From contig JAYUEB010000584.1 in assembly GCA_043739525.1 (NCBI GenBank), positions 1 to 32,425 of the forward strand: a stretch of DNA of 32,425 nucleotides. Reading direction: 5' to 3'. The notes beneath the pieces were generated by a model. That model saw nothing but the letters and a program-made list of their open reading frames with translations. It ran no database searches and was not told the origin of the DNA. Origin of the DNA: Bdellovibrionales bacterium. Lineage in GTDB: Bacteria; Bdellovibrionota; Bdellovibrionia; Bdellovibrionales; JAMPXM01. A program made the position numbers and the translations under genes. Positions 151-14,080 of this stretch are shown here, in pieces (the stretch's first letter is position 1; the number at the start of each line of letters is the position of its first letter).

Positions 151-858
151 ATGAAGAACTTAAATCAAAAAATTCTCGTAAGACCAAGAATAGCATTGGG
201 AGTTTTGTTTTCTGCGGTTATTTCAACCGTCGTTTTTCAAAACTGTAGTAAGGGTGTCTTGCAGGATAATACAAATTTATCGGCGAACTCTGTACCTCAA
301 ATCACTTCAAATGCTGTTGGTGTGGTTACAATGAGGCAGGTTTATAACTCAATGTTAAGCGTAACAAAAAATAATATTGGTACTTCATCTATCTCAGCTA
401 CAGACGTTGCAAACTTGACTTCTCCAGTTTCAGGTACTGGAGATCCAAGTTCTGTGAATGGTCCTAACTGGATGGCAATCACAAGTCTTTCAGGACTCGG
501 TTGTATTGACGTGATGGCAAGCGAAGCAAACCTTCAAAAAGCAGGCTCAGCTCCAAACTTTTTAACTAAAGTGAATTTGTGGGCAACACCACCAATGATT
601 CAAGATGCTCAGATACAAGACTCAGCTAGCCATTTTGCGCGAGCATATTGGGGAAGAAATCTGACATCTGATGAGAGTGCAACAATCCTTGCAGCCATGA
701 GCGCTTCGTTTTCAGACATTCGAGCTCCTGCAGGAAACCAAACTGCTGGTAATCCGAAAACAGATCCAGTGAATGCTGGAACAAATCGCATGATGTACTT
801 TCTCTGCATGGCGATGCTCTCTTCGATGGATACGCATAAGCGTGTCACTTCGAACTAG
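151..858 (+). CDS. putative lipoprotein of unknown function (Q-N-C lipobox), first gene of a three-gene cassette
   Basis: ATG at 151 is preceded by AGAGG (141-145). N-terminal signal peptide ends in 'VVFQNCSKG'. The segment 'HFARAYWGRNLTSDESATILAAM' resembles the conserved helix of partner proteins of DUF1501/DUF1552-type genes, from memory only. Confidence 0.65.
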   Translation: MKNLNQKILVRPRIALGVLFSAVISTVVFQNCSKGVLQDNTNLSANSVPQITSNAVGVVTMRQVYNSMLSVTKNNIGTSSISATDVANLTSPVSGTGDPSSVNGPNWMAITSLSGLGCIDVMASEANLQKAGSAPNFLTKVNLWATPPMIQDAQIQDSASHFARAYWGRNLTSDESATILAAMSASFSDIRAPAGNQTAGNPKTDPVNAGTNRMMYFLCMAMLSSMDTHKRVTSN

Positions 859-909
859 TCTTTCTCGTTTGTGGGTTTTAATTTTTGAGATTTTATTATT
901 GGGGGAAAT

Positions 910-2499
910 ATGAAAAAGCAACTTTTAAACCAAGATGGTATTCCGGTTTTCTTACATAATGACGGCCATCATAAGAAGCCGACCACTCGTCGTGACTTCT
1001 TGTCGACGGGACTCCTGAGCTTTTCAGGAACTCTGTTTGCTCCCTCAATTCTTCAGACTTTATTTACAAGCTCTTCAGCTCAGGCTGCTGGTTGTGCGGT
1101 TGCGCAAGCCAACACCCTCCCAGCATTTATTAATATTAATTGCTCGGGCGGTCCTGCCTTCGCAAGTTACTTCGTTCCAATGGGAAAAGATGGAAGTACA
1201 CTTCCAACTTACAGTGCTGTCGGGCTAGGAAAAGCTCCTGGTATTCAAACTGTTTTTAATAACGTTCCAATACCAATATATAATGCGACGACTGTTTATT
1301 CTGGTACGGGAAAATCGATCAGTCCTGCGAGTCCGATCACTGCAGCGACGCCTCCCTCTACAAATTTACCTCCGGGTGCCGCAGATCCAACTTTGCCTTA
1401 TGTGAGTCAGTTTATGCAGGCCGTTTTGCTTGCGATCAATCCTGATATTCAAGCAAAAACTTCGATGGTGTCTGTGTTATGCCAATCACAAGATGATAGC
1501 AGTACGAATCCAGTGAATATTACAGGTTTAGTCCAAGCTGCTGGTTATGTTGGTGATACCTTACCGCCATTGGGCACAAACGCGACATCTACGGGTGTTG
1601 CAAATATGCCTGCTCAAGTGAATCCATCTGCGCCTTCAGTGGTTCAAAGTTTTGCGGATATCACGAACGCGATTTCACTTCATACAAAAGTGCGTGCGCA
1701 ATTAAATAACGATCCAAAACTTTTTCAAGCAGTGCTCAATTTAACTAAAAATTTATCTTCTTCTCAAGCAAGAACTCTCGCAAGTGCAAATGGTTCAAAC
1801 TCAGCAACGACACTCGGAAATCTTGTCACTTGCGCGACAGGTAAAAACTATGACTTATCAAGCGCTGGAACAACAGCTCTTGACCCAATGAATGATGCGA
1901 ATACAAAAGCAATTTGGGGTCTTGGTAGTAACACAAATATGGCGAGCATGAGTCAAGCGACTCGTTACGCATTTGCCGGAATCGTTTGGAATCTTTTGCA
2001 AGGACATAGTGGTACTGGCGGTATTAACCTTGGTAGTAACGATTATCATGGTAACGCAAGAACAACTACGGATCTTGTAGATTTTAGAAACGGAGCAGTA
2101 GTTGGAAATATTTTAGCGACTGCAGCGGCGCTCGGTAAAAAAGTATTTATTCAGTTAACTTGTGACGGAGCAACTGGTTCAAACGTTTCAGATGACGTTG
2201 CTGATGCCAGCGGTGACCGAGGAATCGGTGGCGGACAACTTTGGATTGCTTACGATCCAGCTGGTCGCCCAGCTACAAGCGGAAACCAATTGGGTAATAT
2301 GACAAATTCACAGGGTGCAGATAGCACGGCTGTCGTTGGTTCGGATGCAATGCGAGCTTCAATCGCTTGCTGGAGAAATTACTTGCAGTTTGCAAGTGCT
2401 TCGACTGCTCAAACGATGTTTAATAAAATTATTCCTGCAAATACTTCTTCTGACTTTGATGCTGCAACTCTTGCTCAAATATTAAAGTTTCAAGGCTGA
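910..2499 (+). CDS. Tat-exported protein, divergent DUF1501-like (alkaline-phosphatase/sulfatase-superfamily-like)
   Basis: Twin-arginine signal 'TTRRDFLSTGLLSF...SSAQAAG'. 'FININCSGGPAFASYFVP' and 'LGSNDYHGN' resemble the N-terminal GG..D...vP and GGFDTH motifs of DUF1501, as recalled. G-rich SD-like run at 901-905. Confidence 0.6.
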   Translation: MKKQLLNQDGIPVFLHNDGHHKKPTTRRDFLSTGLLSFSGTLFAPSILQTLFTSSSAQAAGCAVAQANTLPAFININCSGGPAFASYFVPMGKDGSTLPTYSAVGLGKAPGIQTVFNNVPIPIYNATTVYSGTGKSISPASPITAATPPSTNLPPGAADPTLPYVSQFMQAVLLAINPDIQAKTSMVSVLCQSQDDSSTNPVNITGLVQAAGYVGDTLPPLGTNATSTGVANMPAQVNPSAPSVVQSFADITNAISLHTKVRAQLNNDPKLFQAVLNLTKNLSSSQARTLASANGSNSATTLGNLVTCATGKNYDLSSAGTTALDPMNDANTKAIWGLGSNTNMASMSQATRYAFAGIVWNLLQGHSGTGGINLGSNDYHGNARTTTDLVDFRNGAVVGNILATAAALGKKVFIQLTCDGATGSNVSDDVADASGDRGIGGGQLWIAYDPAGRPATSGNQLGNMTNSQGADSTAVVGSDAMRASIACWRNYLQFASASTAQTMFNKIIPANTSSDFDAATLAQILKFQG

Positions 2500-2531
2500 G
2501 GTAATTATAATTTTATTGGTTTGGGGTTGGT

Positions 2532-3413
2532 ATGTATGCACGTAAGTTGAAAATTATGTTAGCCCTGTTCGCTTCGATGCTCGTCTACCAGAACTGTGGA
2601 GGCGAGTTCAATGCAAACGGTGAAGGCGTTGTCGTCGCGAGTTCAGACGCTTGCGAAGCGGGAACACAAGCTCTCTTTCAAACAACATTTTATCCGTTCA
2701 CAACACAGAACTGTGTGTCATGTCATACGGCTGCTGGTCCTGGCCTTGGGGCTTTCGCAGATCCAAACGTAGGTTATGCTTACCAAGCTTTCGCTTTGTT
2801 AACTGCAAACACGATTGCGTCTTACGCAACAAATGCGGGACATGCGCCTCCGCACACAGGAACGCAAAACAATGCGGCGATGAATCCGATTATGTCGACA
2901 TGGAAAACCCAAACAAACTGCGGCGGTGGCGGCGGAGAGGGCGGAATTTCAACTACCCAAAAAGTCATGAATCTCACGACGGCTGGACCTACCTATGGAA
3001 TTGGAACCGCTCAAGTCATAGCTTGGGACTTAAGTAAGGATGTCTCCAACGTAAAAGGTTTGGTGGGTACTTTGCAAATTAAAGTCTACGTTGATATTCA
3101 TCAGTTGGGCCCAAACAACAACGCATATAACTATGTATTTCTGAATCCTACGATTCTTAATAACACGGCTTCGAATATTCATATTAGTGGAATTCATATG
3201 TCTATCAATGGTGCTTTGGCGAGTACAGTGACGGCCTATAATCTCGTTGATGTAATTTTGCCGATGTCGAATACAAAAACTCTCATTAGTGCTATCGGAG
3301 AGCCGTATATTATGGATGCGGGTATTATGCCGACGGATACCGTGAGCCTCAGTATTGACCTCATTGAAAACACCAAAGATACACCGACAACAGGTCTGCC
3401 AACCGGCCCTTAA
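2532..3413 (+). CDS. lipoprotein with a single c-type haem motif (CxxCH), PSCyt-like N-terminus, beta-rich C-terminal domain
   Basis: Signal peptide plus 'LVYQNCGGE'. 'TQNCVSCHTAAGPG' haem-binding motif lies about 40 aa after the lipid Cys. Gly run 'CGGGGGEGG' acts as a linker. Only 32 nt separate it from the upstream gene. Confidence 0.7.
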   Translation: MYARKLKIMLALFASMLVYQNCGGEFNANGEGVVVASSDACEAGTQALFQTTFYPFTTQNCVSCHTAAGPGLGAFADPNVGYAYQAFALLTANTIASYATNAGHAPPHTGTQNNAAMNPIMSTWKTQTNCGGGGGEGGISTTQKVMNLTTAGPTYGIGTAQVIAWDLSKDVSNVKGLVGTLQIKVYVDIHQLGPNNNAYNYVFLNPTILNNTASNIHISGIHMSINGALASTVTAYNLVDVILPMSNTKTLISAIGEPYIMDAGIMPTDTVSLSIDLIENTKDTPTTGLPTGP

Positions 3414-6163: not shown

Positions 6164-7543
6164 CTAATTTTGGAGGGCGTGAATGATGGCAAGCTTCTGC
6201 GGGTCGGTCAACGCGCTCAAATGACTTGAATAAGAGCTATCAAAGAGCAACATCGGCTTTGAATTCGCTTGGCCTAAAATAGCTTGTTTTAAGCGATCAA
6301 GAGTTTCATTTCCGATTTGGTTGCGCGAAATACTCAAGTCAAGATGGCAAAGTTTGCAATTGTTATTGTAAAGTTTAACCCCGTCGATTGCGATCAAGTA
6401 AAAATTTTGACTTCCATCATAGACGTTAGGAATAGGCGAACCTACAGCTGGATCTCCAAATTCTGCATTGATGACACAGTCAACGAACTGTGAGTAATCA
6501 TTTGCAGCAGTGTAAGGAATTGGCCCAGTCGGAGCGCAAGGAAGTCCATTTAATCCAAATTGTTTTGAGGCACTTGCTTTATTGAAGAACCTGAGTGTTT
6601 GTCCAACAAACAGAACGGTCGTCTGCAACAAGCCTTGAGGACCAATGTAGTTGGCACTTCCAGGATCAGGAGTCGGAGGATTTCCCATATTAGGAAGACC
6701 CGCAAAAGTAACCGCTAAAGCTCCACCGTAAGTGTAAGTTCCAGACCAAGTTGCTTGAGGAATCACAAATGGTCCACCATTAGGATCGCTACCCGTCACG
6801 TTAAGTGTGACATTGATTCCGACTGAAGTCGGAGCTGGTGAACCAGTCGGAGTTGGGCAGGTAACGGTTAAAGTATTTGTGTTCGTAGCGCCGCTCGTAC
6901 AACCACCAGATAAACTCCAGTTTGCTTGAGCTTCAGGCAAGAAGTTCTGGTTGTTAAATTTGAAAGTGAAAGTTCCAGGAGTTGCAGACGTCGTCTCTTT
7001 AATAATATAGTTACCAGTTTGCATAAATGCAGGAACAAAAGTAGGAGGTGTCACACCAATCTTATTCCAGTTTCCAGTCGCGGCAGTAATCACAAACGGA
7101 ACAAGGCTTGTTGAACGAGGTAAACCATCGTTTACTACAAAGTTTGATGTCAATGGTCCGATAACTCCACCAGATCCTGAATTGACGACGAGAGTAATTG
7201 AGAGAACGCCTTTACCAGTACAATTAACAATATAAGGATCAGCATTATCTGCACTGACCTCAGTACAAGTTGTTGTTGAGTTTAAAAGGTTGGTCCAAAC
7301 AAGCGGACCATTTCCAATTAGACTTTTATCAAAACTAAATGAAAGATTTTGATTTGGACTATAGTTATTTGTGAGCGCTGCAGTAATAACAGTCGATCCT
7401 TGAATCGAGTCTGCTGATACAGTGCTTGAGTTAGAAGAAAAACTAGGGCCGCAGTTTTGAAAGCTTAAGACCATAGTTGAAAAAACATAGGTCCAAATCC
7501 AAAACTTTTGACCTTTTAGATGAGCAAATCTTGAAGTCTTCAT
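6164..7543 (-). CDS. multidomain lipoprotein: two Ig-like Cys-pair modules, a cupredoxin-like module and a C-terminal monohaem cytochrome c-like domain
   Basis: Signal peptide plus 'LSFQNCGPS'. Repeated module 'W.N...C......Y.VNC..G.L.IT'. 'VGQTLRFFN...LPC...GP...VDCV' module at about aa 305-387. 'LYNNNCKLCH' at aa 391-400, with a downstream Met ('SKPMLL') as a possible sixth ligand. Confidence 0.75.
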   Translation of the reverse strand: MKTSRFAHLKGQKFWIWTYVFSTMVLSFQNCGPSFSSNSSTVSADSIQGSTVITAALTNNYSPNQNLSFSFDKSLIGNGPLVWTNLLNSTTTCTEVSADNADPYIVNCTGKGVLSITLVVNSGSGGVIGPLTSNFVVNDGLPRSTSLVPFVITAATGNWNKIGVTPPTFVPAFMQTGNYIIKETTSATPGTFTFKFNNQNFLPEAQANWSLSGGCTSGATNTNTLTVTCPTPTGSPAPTSVGINVTLNVTGSDPNGGPFVIPQATWSGTYTYGGALAVTFAGLPNMGNPPTPDPGSANYIGPQGLLQTTVLFVGQTLRFFNKASASKQFGLNGLPCAPTGPIPYTAANDYSQFVDCVINAEFGDPAVGSPIPNVYDGSQNFYLIAIDGVKLYNNNCKLCHLDLSISRNQIGNETLDRLKQAILGQANSKPMLLFDSSYSSHLSALTDPQKLAIIHALQN

Positions 7544-7575: not shown

Positions 7576-8310
7576 TTAGTGGCTGAGAGCAAAAACCAGC
7601 GCAGTTAAATTTGCCGTATCAGTCGCATCCGTCTGTATTAAGGTCGTCATTGCGGCTGTGTTATGCATGTTTCCCAAGTTACCGGTAATGACAGCCGTAA
7701 TTTGAGCCGCACTTGTATAGCGAATGCTCGATATAGCAAGAGGGTTGTGACAATTAACACAATTTGCAGAGTAAATAGCGGCCCCCGTTGCCATCATCGG
7801 ATTAGGAGTCGGCGTTGGAGTTGCGTTTGGATTAGGCGTAGGAGTCGGCGTTGGTGTAGGAGTCGGTGTTGGCAAGGCTGAACCGATGGCAAAGCTTGAT
7901 GCTTCTGAGCCTACGACTTGACCTTGTTGAATAATTGCAACCGTAATCAAGACTGTCCCTGGCGACGCACAATTAATAGTATAAGTTGGTGCCGATGGAA
8001 GACTGATTTCTCTACAGATCGAATTTGAATTATTAATGTTACTCCAAGCATAGTTTGCACCAGCAGGAATGTTTCCAGACACATTAAAATCGATATTTCC
8101 ACCAGCTGGCAACGTACTTTCAACAGCTACGATCTGAACCGGTACTGATGGCAATGGTACTTGAGATTGATTTGTGCTAGAGGCATTGTTTGTTGAGCCG
8201 CCCCCGCTTGATCCAAATCCCGACCCGCAGTTCTGATAAATCAAACTGGTTGAGGTAATAAGCGCTAACATTCCAATTACGTGCTTTTGTGTTTTCATAA
8301 AAATTCTCAT
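7576..8310 (-). CDS. lipoprotein: Ig-like Cys-pair module, PT linker and C-terminal monohaem cytochrome c-like domain (paralog of 6164-7543)
   Basis: Signal peptide plus 'LIYQNCGSG'. 'YAWSNINNSNSICREISLPSAPTYTINCASPGTVLITV' aligns with the module in the downstream gene. Linker '(PT)6 PNPNATPTPTPNP'. Haem motif 'IYSANCVNCH' with 'GNMHN'. An alternative start lies at 8298 (MKTQKH). Confidence 0.75.
   Translation of the reverse strand: MRIFMKTQKHVIGMLALITSTSLIYQNCGSGFGSSGGGSTNNASSTNQSQVPLPSVPVQIVAVESTLPAGGNIDFNVSGNIPAGANYAWSNINNSNSICREISLPSAPTYTINCASPGTVLITVAIIQQGQVVGSEASSFAIGSALPTPTPTPTPTPTPNPNATPTPTPNPMMATGAAIYSANCVNCHNPLAISSIRYTSAAQITAVITGNLGNMHNTAAMTTLIQTDATDTANLTALVFALSH
7796..7875 (-). 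repeat. imperfect tandem coding repeat (Pro-Thr linker)
   Basis: ggagtcggcgttgg occurs at 7805-7818 and 7841-7854, and ggagtcggtgttgg at 7859-7872. These encode the PTPTPT... linker of the 244-aa protein. Confidence 0.6.
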
Positions 8311-8406: not shown

Positions 8407-8447
8407 GAAAAAGTTTTAAAATGGCTTTGTCGAAATCTTCGACAGCC
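8407..8447 (-). terminator. hairpin plus T-rich tail (minus strand), second of two terminator-like structures
   Basis: Minus strand reads GGCTGTCGAA-GAT-TTCGACAAAGCC (7 bp + 3 bp with a 2-nt bulge), followed by ATTTTAAAACTTTTT. Confidence 0.45.
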
Positions 8448-8473
8448 TAGGCATGATAATTTGACCCTAATTT

Positions 8474-8518
8474 AAAAAAACCCGTCGATCTTTTAGCTTG
8501 TTTGACGGCAATTTTTTT
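8474..8518 (-). terminator. weak bidirectional hairpin flanked by A/T runs, immediately downstream of 8579-8983
   Basis: CCGTC (8482-8486) pairs with GACGG (8504-8508) around a 17-nt loop. The element is flanked by A7 on one side and T7 on the other, so either strand reads stem + U-run. Confidence 0.35.
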
Positions 8519-8578
8519 AAAAAAAAGTTTTTGTCGCATTTTGATACGTTAAAAGAAACTAAAAAATTATTTAGAAAA

Positions 8579-8983
8579 TTAAAAGCTGGCAACCCAGGCA
8601 GATAGTTGAGACAAGTCAGAGGTTGCATACACTTGGGCATGACTTGATTGAGTAGGATGAACCGCAATAACATCAAGTCGAGATGTCGCTGAACAAAAGT
8701 TAGCAAGAACGGAAGCATCTGAAGTTCCAGAGATAATTCTAAATGAACCTGCGCCTGATCCGCCGTTGGGTCCTGTGCCTCCGGCAACGTGGCAATTTCC
8801 GCAGCCCTGTTGTGCTCCAACATTTCCGGTCTGTTGAAGAATGCCGGTCATGATAGGTTGAAAAGCAGTCAATTGAGCAGGAGTTGGAGAGCATACAATG
8901 GCCTGCGCGCCAGGAGTATTGCTATTTAAATCCACAGAACAGTTTTGGCAGACCAGCATCGTTAAGATAAAAAATAAGGGCAT
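8579..8983 (-). CDS. small lipoprotein with a single CxxCH haem motif (PSCyt-like)
   Basis: The ORF track starts it at 9055, but that extension overlaps the upstream gene. Met25 at 8983 gives 'MPLFFILTMLVCQNCSV' (signal plus Q-N-C lipobox) and lies 10 nt after the upstream stop. Haem motif 'QQGCGNCHVAGGTGPNGGSG'. Confidence 0.7.
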   Translation of the reverse strand: MPLFFILTMLVCQNCSVDLNSNTPGAQAIVCSPTPAQLTAFQPIMTGILQQTGNVGAQQGCGNCHVAGGTGPNGGSGAGSFRIISGTSDASVLANFCSATSRLDVIAVHPTQSSHAQVYATSDLSQLSAWVASF

Positions 8984-8993
8984 GAGGATTTTC

Positions 8994-9242
8994 TTAGTTA
9001 CAACCACAACCGCCCCCAGCTCCGCCAAATCCACCAACAGACCCTTCGCGAGCATTGAACATATGGTTCATCGAAGTATTCTCTTTCGCATTATCCATAA
9101 GTGCCATACCGCTTTTACTTAAAATATCGCGATCATTTGGCTGAACGCGCTTTCCAAGTAAACCACAAGAACTTAATATCAAAATCGTACTGGCGATTCC
9201 GAAGATCTTGAGAACTTTATGGTAATGAGAAAAAGTATTCAT
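8994..9242 (-). CDS. DUF4266-like small lipoprotein with a Gly-rich C-terminus ending GGGCGCN
   Basis: Canonical lipobox 'LILSSCG'. The 82-aa protein ends '...NAREGSVGGFGGAGGGCGCN*', which matches my recollection of the DUF4266 family terminus. It sits next to a DUF3570-like gene and a TlpA gene, as that family usually does. Confidence 0.65.
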   Translation of the reverse strand: MNTFSHYHKVLKIFGIASTILILSSCGLLGKRVQPNDRDILSKSGMALMDNAKENTSMNHMFNAREGSVGGFGGAGGGCGCN

Positions 9243-9259
9243 CTCTTCCTTATCGGACT

Positions 9260-9778
9260 TTATTTAGATTTCAAGAGAGCAATGATCTCTTTTTCAAACT
9301 TGTCGATATCGCCATCTTTAAAACCTTTATGAATTTTCGTTACTTTGCCTTTTTTGTCTAAAACATATGTCACTGGTAAGCCTGCAACTTCAAGTTTGTT
9401 CAAGACCTCTGCTTTTTGGCCATCGGCAAGTAAAGTCATCTGAACCGGAAACTCTTTTAAGAAGGTATTCGCTTCAGCAAGCTCTTTATCTTCGTTGACT
9501 CCGATGATCTCGAGTCCTTTACCTTGAAATTTTTTGTTTATTTTATTTAGAATAGGCAACTCAACTTTGCATGGTTCGCACCAACTTGCCCAGAAATCAA
9601 CGATAACTACTTTACCTTTGAGTGAGCTCAATTTAACGCTTGAATTAGGATCCGCAAATTTTTTCAATGTAAAATCTGGAAATACTTGGCCAACTTTTAC
9701 TTTTGCAAAAGCAGAACTATTAATTAAAAGACCTACACTGAGTAGGCTCACCGATAAAAACTTTTTCGAAAAGCTCAT
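9260..9778 (-). CDS. TlpA/ResA-family periplasmic thiol:disulfide oxidoreductase
   Basis: Signal peptide present. 'VVIVDFWASWCEPCKVELPIL' contains the thioredoxin CxxC, and 'LEIIGVNED' is typical of the TlpA-like fold. Confidence 0.85.
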   Translation of the reverse strand: MSFSKKFLSVSLLSVGLLINSSAFAKVKVGQVFPDFTLKKFADPNSSVKLSSLKGKVVIVDFWASWCEPCKVELPILNKINKKFQGKGLEIIGVNEDKELAEANTFLKEFPVQMTLLADGQKAEVLNKLEVAGLPVTYVLDKKGKVTKIHKGFKDGDIDKFEKEIIALLKSK

Positions 9779-9811
9779 TTATTCTCTCTCCTTAAAAAAC
9801 AAGCATAGTAA

Positions 9812-10942
9812 TTAAAATTTCGCGCTCATTCCTAAACCATAGACATTAGCAACAATACGAACGAGTTTACCATTTTTCACGTCGCTCAGATCACCTGGAT
9901 CGACAGTGTTTTTGTAGATGTCCGTATACCATTCGTATTTAAGATAAATTGAAAAATCGTCTGTAAACTTAATCGTTGGGCGAATTCCGCCAAGGTATGA
10001 GCTATAGCTTGCAAGAGTTTTGTTTCCCGTCCAGAAAACTCCTGGAGCAGAAGAATCGTAGTAAGGTTTATAAAAACTTGCCTGTTGTTGAAGATAATAT
10101 CTGAATACGAGAGCGATATTAAAATGTTTGCTAAAATCATGATTGATTTTCTCTTCTAGAGTTTCCGAAAAAACGCCCCAGCTATCGTAGTACAGACGAT
10201 CTGTTGTACTAAATGCTGTCCGCGTGCTTTCTGAAAACCAATTGTATTTTACGGCAAAGGCATTTCGATTGCGAGTCATTGGATGATTTTCAGGCTGAGT
10301 CGTCGCGTTTCCCGAGTTATCAAGAAAAATAGCGCGGCGATAAGGGCTCGCATCGTATCCACTCTCAACACGAAAGTCGTAGAGAAAATTGATTAGGCTT
10401 ACGCGACTCAAAATTTGTGTTAGTGAAATAGAATAACCTTGGTTATTCATCGCTTGGTGAAAAGTGGGAACACCGGATTCTTCAATCGTATCTTGACCAT
10501 TACTAAAGGTGAAACCCAGAACTGTATTTTTTGAAAAGAACTCGCGTGATCCACCGGCAGAGACAATTTTAGAATGATAGTCGTTTTCGTCACTCTGAAT
10601 ATAAGCAGCACTTAAAGTTCCGTCAGGAATTGTGAGTTCGGCATTAGCATCGTATTCCACTCGGCGATCGCCAATGCGACTCTTTTGTCCCTTTGAACCG
10701 AAAGATCGAACATCAACAGAAGCACTCGAAACGATATCGGCAGCCCAGCCCACTCCAATTTTAAGTTGATCATGATAAGCCGTACCCGTGACATCGACTG
10801 ATGGAGAAACGACTTGGGTTTCACCGTCATCGTAGTCACGAATGACTGAATTCACTTCATTAGCAGCAAAAGCTGAAAAAGCCTGAAATAAAAATGCCAT
10901 TGAAACAGTCGGGATAAAAAACTTTTTCATTGGCTTCTTCAT
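9812..10942 (-). CDS. DUF3570-like outer-membrane beta-barrel protein
   Basis: Signal peptide 'FLFQAFSAFA|ANE'. 'YDDGETQVVSPSVDV...ADIVSSASVD' is the N-terminal pattern I associate with DUF3570. Alternating beta-strand sequence and a C-terminal aromatic residue ('GMSAKF'). Its ATG overlaps the upstream stop (ATGA at 10939-10942). Confidence 0.6.
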   Translation of the reverse strand: MKKPMKKFFIPTVSMAFLFQAFSAFAANEVNSVIRDYDDGETQVVSPSVDVTGTAYHDQLKIGVGWAADIVSSASVDVRSFGSKGQKSRIGDRRVEYDANAELTIPDGTLSAAYIQSDENDYHSKIVSAGGSREFFSKNTVLGFTFSNGQDTIEESGVPTFHQAMNNQGYSISLTQILSRVSLINFLYDFRVESGYDASPYRRAIFLDNSGNATTQPENHPMTRNRNAFAVKYNWFSESTRTAFSTTDRLYYDSWGVFSETLEEKINHDFSKHFNIALVFRYYLQQQASFYKPYYDSSAPGVFWTGNKTLASYSSYLGGIRPTIKFTDDFSIYLKYEWYTDIYKNTVDPGDLSDVKNGKLVRIVANVYGLGMSAKF

Positions 10943-11712
10943 AGGCCAACCTCGAGGCTGACCTGTGCTCCGAAGGTCACGAAGCTATTGTTTTGATTAA
11001 ATACCACGGCTTGAGACCCACCAAAGCTAAAAGAAACGCCACCGCTTTGATTGAACTTCAGACCAACAACTCCGTGCAAGAGATAATTAGGTGCGTTCGT
11101 TTTGCTACCTACAAAAATAGCGTTATTTGCAGAAGGTATGAACAGTCCGCCTGCGTAAGAGACAAAACCTGAGAGTTGTTTTGAGATCAGAGCATCGTTT
11201 CCGAGCTCGATACCTAGATGGTGACCCGCACTGGTTTGGGTAATCCATTCGCCGACATAATATTTGGTGTAAAAGCCTGGTGAGCGATAGCGTTGTAATC
11301 CAATCGTAATGAGATAATTGGAGCCGCGAAAGAAAGAACCTGCAGTCGAAATCGAGTTTTTAGAGAGTCCCAGCTCAGAATAACTTGCAAAGTCATCGTC
11401 ATCCATACGGTCTGTTTTAAGTCTCACGTTTGCAGTTTGTGCAATATAGCCGATGGCGCGTCGGCCATCGGGGTAAACGACGAGAACCTTATAAAAACTC
11501 GCTTCTTTTGTCTTGATAAGAACTTTTGCCACCGCAATAGAGGCTTCGGCTTTCAATATATAAAGCGGTCGATAGTTAAATCCGGCACCTGAATAGACAA
11601 TAGTCTCATCATCAATACCAATTAATTGATTGGCTGCGAGGGCACGGTTACCCGTCAAGATTCCTAGCAAAATTGTAAGCACTACTAAAATGAAAAAACG
11701 AAAAAGAAACAT
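10939..11712 (-). CDS. exported protein, SH3b-like N-domain plus beta-barrel-like C-domain
   Basis: I prefer Met37 at 11712 ('MFLFRFFILVVLTILLGILTGNRALA|AN' signal peptide). 'FYKVLVVYPDGRRAIGYI' is SH3b-like. The C-terminal half is Gly/aromatic-rich with alternating strands. Confidence 0.55.
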   Translation of the reverse strand: MFLFRFFILVVLTILLGILTGNRALAANQLIGIDDETIVYSGAGFNYRPLYILKAEASIAVAKVLIKTKEASFYKVLVVYPDGRRAIGYIAQTANVRLKTDRMDDDDFASYSELGLSKNSISTAGSFFRGSNYLITIGLQRYRSPGFYTKYYVGEWITQTSAGHHLGIELGNDALISKQLSGFVSYAGGLFIPSANNAIFVGSKTNAPNYLLHGVVGLKFNQSGGVSFSFGGSQAVVFNQNNSFVTFGAQVSLEVGL

Positions 11713-11775
11713 CTTTATATCGTGAAGAGGCGCATGATTCTTGTCAACGTGCTTAAAGTTCATTATTCTTTTCAA

Positions 11776-13155
11776 ATGAAATTTAAATTCTTGATTTATA
11801 GTTTCCTCCTGATTGTTCATGTCGACTTTGCTTTTTCAAAAGGAAAAGAGATTTTGCTGGATGAAGGTAGATCCGTTCAACAAGAAACGCAGCTGGTCTT
11901 TAGTCGAATTACCGTAGGTGATTTTAAAAACGCAGCGAACGGGCAAGCTTTCAGCCAAGATTTTTGTGGATATCTTGTCGAAGAATTCAATATGAAGAGC
12001 TATTGGGATGCAAAATGTGGGTCCTTTACCCGTATTGGCGATAAGGGTGCTGTTAACGGATCGGATGCTGTATTAAATGGCGAGTGGAAAGAGAATGAAC
12101 TCTACTTATATTTACGCTCTAAAAATCTAAAGTACATACTGGGCGCCTGGAAAGTTCCGATTCCGCTTCCAGATGGAGTATTGCTTAAGCCGACAGCAGA
12201 ACAAATCGTCGGTTTTTTGATTGCGCAGATTCCGATGATAGGTCACGTGATGAAAGTGGGCGGCAACGGAAATGTCATGATCAATATGGGTTCTCGCAAA
12301 GCGGTTCGCGTTGGACAAACTTTCAAAGTTTTTGACTACGTGTCAGTGGATCATCCGCTGAATGGTAAAGTAAAAGACATCGCAAAAGTCGAGATTAAGA
12401 GCGTTGTCGGGCCAGAGTCTTCGGTTGCGACAGTTTATTATAATTCTCCAGATGACCAAAGTATTTCAACGGGCGCTAAAATTAAAATTGATGATTCGGC
12501 TCTCGTCAAAAGTACGTTGACAGAGCGAGAAGGCGAGAGATCTTGGATCGCAGTCGGCGGTCAACTCATGAATATTCGTGTATCAACAGATCCGTTTTCA
12601 GTCGTTCAAAAGCGTAGCTACAACTTCAACTATACGCCTTTTCTTGATTTCGCATTTGGAACCAAAAAACTTTATGTCCATGGTCTTTACGGCCAGGCGG
12701 CAGGACCGAGTGCCGACATTAGTTATCTCGAAGTTGAAGCGGGCACCGATCTCTATAAAGGAAGCTTTCAAGAAGGATTTTTACTTTTTGGAATGGGCGG
12801 AAACGTCTCTCAGTTTACCGCGCTCAATCACGTGACTCCGTCACTATATGAAGATTCGCAACGAATTTCGCCTTTTTTTGATATTCGACTTCAGTATGAG
12901 CCTCGTCCAAGATTTGTTTTTTATGTCGGAGGTAAAGTTCTTTATCCTGTGTTTACAGGTTCGCAAATTGGTGGAGCTCAAATTTTCAGTTACGGAGCTG
13001 AACCTTATGTTGGAGCCAAAATTCAAATGAGCTCAAAATTTGCGGCCGAAGTCCTTGCCAGATCGCGCTACTTTTCAATCAATTATAGCGGAAATACCGG
13101 GATACGAGAAACCCAGACAGCTTTCCTAGTCCGTGGCATCTATTTCATCAATTAG
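11776..13155 (+). CDS. exported protein, periplasmic alpha/beta and beta-sandwich N-domains plus beta-barrel-like C-domain
   Basis: I prefer Met19 at 11776 ('MKFKFLIYSFLLIVHVDFAFS' signal peptide). 'GHVMKVGGNGNVMINMGSRKAVRVGQTFKVF' is a small beta-domain motif. The C-terminus is strand-rich and ends 'GIYFIN'. Confidence 0.55.
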   Translation: MKFKFLIYSFLLIVHVDFAFSKGKEILLDEGRSVQQETQLVFSRITVGDFKNAANGQAFSQDFCGYLVEEFNMKSYWDAKCGSFTRIGDKGAVNGSDAVLNGEWKENELYLYLRSKNLKYILGAWKVPIPLPDGVLLKPTAEQIVGFLIAQIPMIGHVMKVGGNGNVMINMGSRKAVRVGQTFKVFDYVSVDHPLNGKVKDIAKVEIKSVVGPESSVATVYYNSPDDQSISTGAKIKIDDSALVKSTLTEREGERSWIAVGGQLMNIRVSTDPFSVVQKRSYNFNYTPFLDFAFGTKKLYVHGLYGQAAGPSADISYLEVEAGTDLYKGSFQEGFLLFGMGGNVSQFTALNHVTPSLYEDSQRISPFFDIRLQYEPRPRFVFYVGGKVLYPVFTGSQIGGAQIFSYGAEPYVGAKIQMSSKFAAEVLARSRYFSINYSGNTGIRETQTAFLVRGIYFIN

Positions 13156-13732: not shown

Positions 13733-14080
13733 CTAATTCGCAACTTCAAAATAAACAGCGGCATCTTCGCCATAGTTATGATCGTAGAGTGGACCATCAG
13801 TTGTTGAACTGTACGGAGCCGTAGTAACACAATCCCAAGCGGCACCCGCTTGAACTTCAGGGCCGTGTTCGCAAGGTGCGCCAAAAGTATGTAGACGATG
13901 AACAACTGAATCGTCATTTATAAAGTGAATCGTGTCTCCCACTTTTGCTTTAATAGGTGTCGCTGCTGTATTCCATGGATTGCCAGCAGTGCCGTTCGCA
14001 ATGTGAAACTCTAGTACTGCCGCATTTGCATTGACCGCAAATCCCAAAGCAAGAGTTGCAACTAAAAGTCTTAAATTCAT
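13733..14080 (-). CDS. small secreted cupredoxin-like protein (standalone copy of a module in 6164-7543)
   Basis: Strong SD (GGAGG, complement of 14085-14089). Signal peptide 'LALGFAVNANA|A'. 'KVGDTIHFINDDSVVHRLHTFGAPCEHGP...WDCV' resembles a cupredoxin strand pattern. A canonical C-x-H-x-M copper site is not evident. Confidence 0.6.
   Translation of the reverse strand: MNLRLLVATLALGFAVNANAAVLEFHIANGTAGNPWNTAATPIKAKVGDTIHFINDDSVVHRLHTFGAPCEHGPEVQAGAAWDCVTTAPYSSTTDGPLYDHNYGEDAAVYFEVAN

Follow-up and report, generated by a model that had tools for sequence, protein, structure and literature searches.

A Bdellovibrionales operon as a probable variant of the DUF3570/DUF4266/thioredoxin-like system, with a putative flavin site and lineage-specific partners

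The minus strand of a 32,425-nucleotide contig from an uncultured Bdellovibrionales bacterium (JAYUEB010000584.1; the whole of this stretch is referred to as the window) carries a run of five closely packed genes, here called g1 to g5 (positions 8579–11712), which begins beside a divergently oriented gene, div. The five genes and div form a conserved unit among Bdellovibrionota, and the operon is very probably a variant of the system in which DUF3570, DUF4266 and a thioredoxin-like protein are encoded together. Most likely, the module serves flavin, thiol and haem electron transfer at the outer membrane. We give slightly better than even chances to the fuller reading, according to which the operon is the Bdellovibrionales form of an extracytosolic electron-transfer system and works by the whole of the mechanism set out below; passage of electrons across the outer membrane, taken as a claim by itself, is rather doubtful.

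The biochemistry of the core of this system has been described. Méheust et al. (eLife 2021; PMC8238504) showed that ApbE flavinylates the DUF3570 protein of Chlorobium luteolum at two [S/T]GA[S/T] motifs, to which flavin mononucleotide (FMN) becomes covalently bound, and reported clusters of ApbE, DUF3570, a thioredoxin-like protein and a DUF4266 protein with a CXC motif, 227 of them with DsbD and 316 without. The path proposed there leads from DsbD through the thioredoxin-like protein to the CXC motif of DUF4266 and the FMN of DUF3570, the function being uncertain, and the paper makes no mention of an outer-membrane barrel. Searching the literature by family name and by Pfam/InterPro accession yielded functional statements on DUF3570 or DUF4266 in this paper only, the sole further match by accession being a preprint on algal genomics that is unrelated, and its text-form supplementary tables contain neither Bdellovibrio nor PF12094 nor PF14086. 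An earlier reading of the window from its letters alone (the original prediction) had called this gene neighbourhood one with no assigned function, which holds for the physiology but not for the biochemistry. What was known already is thus the core triad and the flavinylation of DUF3570 by ApbE; what is new here is a lineage-specific rebuild of it, in which the gene order is altered, the flavin site is a variant, the ApbE gene stands outside the operon and three partners have been added.

The open reading frame (ORF) list of the window places all five genes on the minus strand: g1 (10939–11712, 257 amino acids (aa), in an ORF open to 11820), g2 (9812–10942, 376 aa, DUF3570), g3 (9260–9778, 172 aa, TlpA/ResA/DsbE-like), g4 (8994–9242, 82 aa, a DUF4266 lipoprotein) and g5 (8579–8983, 134 aa, a monohaem c-type protein, in an ORF open to 9055). 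An ATGA overlap joins g1 and g2 (10939–10942), gaps of 33, 17 and 10 nucleotides (nt) follow, Shine-Dalgarno sequences are recognisable for g2, g3 and g4, and a signal-peptide-like N-terminal segment can be read by eye in each of the five proteins. The original prediction had described the same genes, junctions and signal peptides, and had named the products as a DUF3570-like barrel, a DUF4266-like lipopeptide, a TlpA-type thioredoxin, a CxxCH lipoprotein and an outer-membrane protein with an SH3-like part. Profile hidden Markov models (HMMs) and structure models bear these identities out, DUF3570 and DUF4266 both well above cut-off, and leave the SH3b-like character of the N-terminal domain of g1 weak.

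The central protein, g2, matches PF12094 (DUF3570) at 1.3e-33 and 116.9 bits (cut-off 25), the match covering only positions 113–411 of the 427 in the profile. It belongs to a short type, a subfamily of about 365–380 aa with 57 relatives, all named ones of which are Bdellovibrionota; compared with the DUF3570 proteins of Méheust et al. the barrel is about 370 rather than about 430 aa long and has a shorter loop L2. AlphaFold2 returned a 16-strand barrel (predicted local distance difference test score (pLDDT) 91.7, predicted template modelling score (pTM) 0.82) with turns of 2–4 residues after the even strands, long loops after the odd ones and a C-terminus ending in AKF, and Foldseek matched it to generic outer-membrane barrels only (FadL, PgaA, OmpG, porins). 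The protein is thereby modelled with high confidence as an outer-membrane beta-barrel. Foldseek matches of g2 to MtrB (rank 49) and PcoB were taken as generic barrel likeness and not used as evidence.

A putative flavin site lies at residues 69–83 of g2 (10694–10738, minus strand), D-I-V-S-S-A-S-V-D-V-R-S-F-G-S (DIVSSASVDVRSFGS), a segment that aligns with the tandem sites D..[ST]GA[ST].DV..SGAS of other DUF3570 proteins and so keeps the position of their flavinylation sites. At site 1 the Gly is replaced by Ser (S-S-A-S, ending at S75), the subfamily having [ST]-S-[AS]-S where the proteins of Méheust et al. have [ST]-G-A-[ST], and site 2 is degenerate (S-F-G-S). Across 56 subfamily members, D69, S75 and V78 are each present in 56/56 and S73 in 55/56, position 74 is Ala in 39 and Ser in 17, and position 83 is Ser in 53 and Thr in 3. 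The Ser variant is also found elsewhere: tandem D..TSAS/D..SSAS sites occur in four loci of other phyla (Deltaproteobacteria, Thermoanaerobaculia, Vicinamibacterales), with ApbE 29–239 bp away in 4/4, and among the 145 nearest representatives outside Bdellovibrionota the Gly/Ser position is occupied by Ser in 75, Gly in 34 and Ala in 19. A change of Gly to Ala in the motif of a model substrate is reported to keep about 50% of flavinylation (review PMC12052999). On this evidence Ser75 is a probable but unproven target of ApbE, and the chances that g2 is flavinylated at all appear about even or slightly better. In the model, the site lies where strand 3 ends and in loop L2 (residues 74–89, with a helix at 76–81), so that it would face the outside or the lumen of the barrel.

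The two core partners of the barrel were likewise recovered. g4 matches PF14086 (DUF4266) at 1.1e-14 and 55.5 bits (cut-off 27), has by eye a canonical lipobox, LSSC, with Gly at +2, and ends in a glycine-rich tail that is invariant in the alignment (...GGAGGGCGCN; CGCN codons at 8997–9008), the terminus GGCGCN being present in all 20 Bdellovibrionota copies. g3 matches Redoxin (9.6e-26, 90.8 bits) and AhpC-TSA (3.7e-24, 85.5 bits) above cut-off and scores only 13.3 bits against PF13899 (Thioredoxin_7), the family named by Méheust et al. Its best NCBIfam match is the ResA subfamily model (2e-30), yet at 106 bits it stays below the cut-off of 170, as it does for TlpA (76.6 vs 230) and DsbE (64.8 vs 123); the nearest PDB entries are a DsbE-like protein of Chlorobium (3gl3, 1.8e-26), ResA (1e-21) and TlpA (1.5e-15). 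The active site reads WCEPC (CEPC at residues 67–70, bases 9569–9580) and is present in 19/21 Bdellovibrionota loci. By its sequence, g3 belongs with the reductive periplasmic thioredoxin-fold proteins of ResA/TlpA type, as a member of the superfamily with no equivalog assignment. It shares with TlpA, ResA and CcmG/DsbE the fold, a WCxPC-type site (CEPC as in ResA), secretion and a presumed need for recharging by CcdA/DsbD. Since g2 contains no cysteine, it is not the target of g3; the obvious candidate is the CxC of g4, which is invariant. Unlike those relatives, g3 would then likely act on the CxC of DUF4266 and not on an apocytochrome or a Cu-site protein.

The last gene, g5, encodes a protein of a narrow family with no Pfam match above cut-off. 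A single CxxCH haem motif, CGNCH (residues 61–65, bases 8789–8803), is invariant in the family, as are, in the alignment, C15 (in the QNC signal), C31, C61, C64, H65, C97 and H115, with C31 and C97 forming an extra Cys pair. Weak PDB profile matches point to class I cytochromes c (c555 at 6e-6, c4 at 0.02–0.1); the family has no conserved Met, and the invariance of His115 suggests His/His haem ligation. The signal segment ends in a non-canonical, lipoprotein-like QNC box. A signal end of the form [FLIY]-Q-N-C recurs where L-[AS]-[GA]-C would be expected of a lipobox, namely in g5, in the products of 151–858, 2532–3413, 7576–8310 and 6164–7543, and in those of matching genes in the related loci L003–L005, and may be a lineage-specific lipobox variant.

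A DUF3570 profile search of the representative library gave 3392 sequences, each standing for a cluster at 50% identity. A genome scan gave 78 loci, which were annotated with custom HMMs and include 23 distinct Bdellovibrionota loci; the conservation counts take in only those loci that reach far enough. The order of the window, div (divergent) and then g1–DUF3570–TlpA–DUF4266–g5, is that of these Bdellovibrionota loci: the five-gene order, a comparison that the original prediction had named as a way to check it, recurs in 19–20 of about 20 informative distinct loci at 40–85% identity. Gene by gene, the counts are 19/19 for g1, which lies directly upstream of DUF3570 in each case, 20/21 for TlpA, 20/20 for DUF4266, 19/19 for g5, all with CxxCH, and 13/15 for div, whose homologues occupy the same divergent position. 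In some 45 loci of other phyla the usual order is TlpA–DUF4266–DUF3570–ApbE, tightly packed, which differs from that of Bdellovibrionota. What the operon shares with the Méheust clusters is DUF3570, a DUF4266 protein with a C-terminal CxC and an adjacent periplasmic thioredoxin-fold protein. The three partners g1, g5 and div were found in no other phylum sampled, their profiles giving no match outside Bdellovibrionota in those loci, and are, on this distribution, lineage-specific additions to the core triad; for the first and last genes the original prediction had come to the same view, while div was absent from its operon description.

Two kinds of locus depart from these patterns. One Oligoflexia metagenome-assembled genome (MAG; nzgw168) has two copies of the module (L022 and L027), and the L027 copy reads g1–DUF3570–DUF4266–g5, with neither a TlpA gene nor a nearby ApbE. 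In Calditrichia, Krumholzibacteriia and Gammaproteobacteria (L030, L048 and L070), a few canonical TlpA–DUF4266–DUF3570(–ApbE) clusters have, just upstream or no more than 3 kb away, a gene for a cytochrome with two or nine haems, which hints independently at a connection of the system to haem electron carriers.

Most Bdellovibrionota relatives have an ApbE gene linked to the unit, as do the clusters of Méheust et al. Most loci have g5, then a block of four genes, n430–n225–n490–n283, and then a convergent ApbE gene, typically 6–9 kb downstream; ApbE occurs within 10 kb downstream in 8/11 loci with full flanks and in 12/23 overall. Sequences from relatives of the same lineage as the window (L001, L007, L084, L085 and L087) end before they become informative on this point. 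The identity of the ApbE genes is supported by a PF02424 match at 2.4e-68 (L003). In L024, ApbE is convergent and directly abuts g5, and a moved div homologue overlaps its start. The original prediction had seen no ApbE-like ORF, which is borne out for the window, and had taken the haem lipoprotein to stand in place of ApbE, which the relatives do not support: g5 and ApbE co-occur in most of them, including L024, and are therefore not alternatives. In the lineage of the window (the window, L001, L007 and L085) the second block has changed both place and orientation, lying at 151–3413 in the window, and no ApbE lies within reach. This lineage has a local rearrangement, which is no sign of a loss of ApbE from the system.

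In the mechanism that we favour, an ApbE encoded elsewhere in the genome would flavinylate Ser75 of g2 (in D-I-V-S-S-A-S) on the unfolded precursor in the periplasm, and once the barrel has inserted, loop L2 would hold the flavin in the lumen or at its external opening. A membrane protein of the CcdA/DsbD type, encoded at an unlinked site, would recharge g3, which would keep the CxC of g4 reduced, and g4, anchored in the outer membrane, would hand electrons to the flavin by means of its flexible glycine tail. The monohaem lipoprotein g5 would tie the module by a second route, one electron at a time, to the pool of periplasmic cytochromes; g1 and div, as small barrel proteins of the outer membrane, would serve as its scaffold or anchor; and the module would in the end reduce a substrate that lies in the outer membrane or beyond it.

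Several observations weigh against this proposal. The canonical [ST]GA[ST] motif is present in none of the 57 members of the g2 subfamily, and the surface-or-lumen placement of L2 comes from topology rules applied to a model. The 32-kb window contains no ApbE, either by Pfam annotation of its large ORFs or by phmmer with Bdellovibrionota ApbE against ORFs of at least 50 aa, and no match to DsbD (PF02683) or CcdA; the precomputed Pfam lists of related loci show no DsbD either, so that the operon differs from the Méheust clusters in having ApbE outside it and no DsbD. Genes for a glycosyltransferase, Wzy_C and HU also keep their place in the lineage, and since synteny is conserved generally, an ApbE linkage over 6–9 kb is by itself weak evidence. 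Finally, where the electrons come from, where they go and which way they flow are matters of inference.

The same absences form part of the case for a flavin-independent variant, in which the sites have decayed and haem, from g5 and the neighbouring cytochromes, replaces FMN, leaving a thiol/haem system on a flavin-free barrel. This explanation, which is close to what the original prediction had proposed, would account for the lack of a canonical motif, the degenerate site 2 and the window without ApbE, and it is consistent with the presence of g5 in all Bdellovibrionota loci as against a CxxCH ORF within 3 kb in 7/54 loci of other phyla (none in 47/54), as well as with the functional redundancy between flavinylation and cytochromes that has been noted between species (PMC8238504). 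However, decay would not predict that the Asp, the Ala/Ser at -1 and the acceptor Ser of site 1 stay invariant or nearly so; moreover, ApbE is linked in most g5-bearing relatives, adjacently so in L024, and Ser-variant sites adjoin ApbE in other phyla. We therefore regard a flavin-free module as unlikely.

Handling of copper, which the original prediction had named as a possibility, or of iron appears less probable still. DUF3570 would here be an outer-membrane channel, the CxC of DUF4266 a chaperone for Cu(I) or Fe that TlpA keeps in the reduced state, and g5 a sensor or reductant of the metal. The model for such a role is TlpA, which keeps ScoI and CoxB reduced, and the CCS chaperone binds Cu through a C-terminal CXC motif; the TlpA-family similarity of g3 and the terminal CxC of g4 on its flexible tail fit this picture, and VIT1 iron transporters occur in 25 DUF3570 clusters (PMC8238504). 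Against it, the operon yielded no match to a metal-transport or cupredoxin family, and the conserved flavinylation-type site and the linkage to ApbE are left unexplained. A metal role would in any case be compatible with the flavin-based reading, as the flavin could reduce a metal. The notion that g3 is merely a housekeeping ResA/CcmG-type apocytochrome reductase for g5 and the neighbouring haem lipoproteins, with the remaining genes unrelated, draws on the CEPC motif that g3 shares with ResA, on ResA being its best NCBIfam match and on several CxxCH lipoproteins close by, but is highly improbable given that the TlpA/DUF4266/DUF3570 triad occurs in many phyla, mostly without cytochromes (47/54 loci), that g3 falls short of the ResA cut-off (106 vs 170 bits) and that the five-gene order is kept as a unit.

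The flavin, thiol and haem module that we favour can be compared with two further kinds of known system. MtrCAB offers an analogy in working only: an outer-membrane beta-barrel with a redox cofactor inside it or running through it, and lipoproteins as partners. Unlike MtrCAB, the module has no multihaem cytochrome (one CxxCH, in g5) and a barrel of 16 rather than 26 strands, and the carriers proposed are FMN, a dithiol and one haem. LptDE and RcsF-OmpA are plug-in-barrel pairs of a lipoprotein and an outer-membrane protein. Here, too, a lipoprotein gene lies beside a barrel gene, and the flexible segment of g4 could enter the lumen; there is, however, no homology to those pairs, and the pairing of g4 with g2 is a putative one.

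The DUF3570/DUF4266/TlpA/ApbE cluster is widespread. A flavin site on loop L2 of an outer-membrane barrel would bring ApbE-type flavinylation into the outer membrane, and a strictly conserved Ser-for-Gly site that stands beside ApbE in other phyla suggests that the accepted ApbE motif may be too narrow. It is conceivable, albeit improbable, that DUF3570 barrels in general, with FMN bound covalently to a loop at the surface or in the lumen, a CxC-tailed lipoprotein threaded through the barrel and, in Bdellovibrionales, a monohaem lipoprotein, constitute a compact, non-multihaem conduit for electrons through the outer membrane and that [ST]-S-A-S is a new ApbE motif. If so, the conduit would be a flavin/dithiol counterpart of MtrCAB, and the [ST]-S-A-S target would widen the predicted set of flavinylated proteins. 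The recruitment of a cytochrome c and small barrels in one lineage supplies natural variants for tracing where electrons enter and leave. The hosts are uncultured Bdellovibrionales represented by MAGs only, and any role in predation or in surface redox chemistry would be conjectural.

Of the added partners, g1 has no Pfam match, and a sequence-profile search of the PDB returned nothing. Its AlphaFold2 model (pLDDT 78) shows a small N-terminal beta domain (strands within 28–99) followed by an eight-strand barrel (119–256), for which Foldseek found the OprF N-domain (E 7e-5, TM 0.65 on the target) and also NspA, OmpX and OmpA, with target TM of 0.49–0.65 for OprF-N, NspA and OmpX. The C-terminus, ...EVGL, is not aromatic, and there is no sequence-family match to OmpA, OmpX or OprF; on the model, the C-terminal part is an OmpA/OmpX/OprF-type 8-strand outer-membrane barrel. 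SH3_3 is detected weakly in 4/16 members of the g1 family, which is confined to Bdellovibrionota (best E 0.0054), and the protein of the window itself gives no match. The product of the divergent gene div (11776–13155, plus strand) is secreted, has about 459 aa and combines a FlgT_C-like beta domain, matched in 7/13 family members (best E 2.3e-4), with a beta-rich C-terminal half; its position in relatives makes div part of the conserved unit. That div and g1, two modular, beta-rich proteins, might be homologous was considered and rejected (hhalign probability 0.1%).

The gene starts at both ends of the operon allow more than one choice. g5 probably begins at GTG 9007 (MVVTKKILMPLFF...), with a 14-nt overlap with g4, a start favoured because homologues begin at the equivalent position and a charged n-region results. 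The conserved-looking VVVTK (AVVVVTK) stretch of the long, database form of g5 (ATG 9055; 8994–9055) was discarded as an overlap artefact, because the invariant GGCGCN-stop of g4 is there read in the other frame. g1 may start at ATG 11763 rather than at 11712; the extension, MNFKHVDKNHAPLHDIKM, is kept in four homologues, and the gene call in L085 is the long form. The spacer of 63 bp (11713–11775) that the original prediction had put between the divergent genes holds for a g1 start at 11712 and the div ATG at 11776 and is shorter with the alternative start, the distance from g1 to div ranging from 12 to 63 bp with the start chosen. With starts so close together, both promoters must overlap neighbouring coding sequence. 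A single sigma-70-like match was found on the minus strand (11839–11812), and the region as a whole is no richer in such matches than shuffled sequence; neither a convincing sigma-70 pair nor a Shine-Dalgarno sequence precedes the candidate g1 starts. TTGACA...TATAAA just 5' of ATG 11712 was tried as a leaderless promoter and dropped, its spacer being about 22 nt.

Downstream of the operon, two terminator-like hairpins (8423–8528, minus strand) lie in the 268-nt gap 3' of g5, before the next gene. They fold at 8464–8528 (A-tract/CCGUC...GACGG/U-tract) and 8423–8447 with -31.9 kcal/mol and z = -2.3 vs shuffles. The two hairpins described by the original prediction are thus recovered by folding, this z-score being their sole support, but not by a strict consensus terminator scan, which reported none after g5 because the loop is long.

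Among the other genes of the window, those at 151–3413 on the plus strand are the remnant of the conserved four-gene block and probably associated with the operon: n225 (151–858), a QNC lipoprotein, n490 (910–2499), a 529-aa protein with a twin-arginine translocation (Tat) signal (TRRDFLSTG), and n283 (2532–3413), a QNC lipoprotein with CxxCH, none of which falls into a curated family. The first gene of the block, n430, which would lie to the left of the window start, encodes a PSD2/DUF1585 cytochrome (29.4 bits in L005). Between the operon and the displaced block lie two genes for QNC lipoprotein-like paralogues on the minus strand (7576–8310, 244 aa, and 6164–7543, 459 aa), whose products share 30% identity over about 80 N-terminal residues and have one C-terminal CxxCH each; the pair is confined to the lineage of the window (L001, L007, L085). 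Beyond div, 13733–14080 (minus strand) encodes a protein of 115 aa that is secreted, contains a cluster of His and Cys (VVHRLHTFGAPCEHG) and has no Pfam or NCBIfam match; by its composition it could be a small metal-binding or cupredoxin-like protein. The position of its gene is taken by a 117-aa gene in L001 and by a tRNA-synthetase-like gene in more distant relatives.

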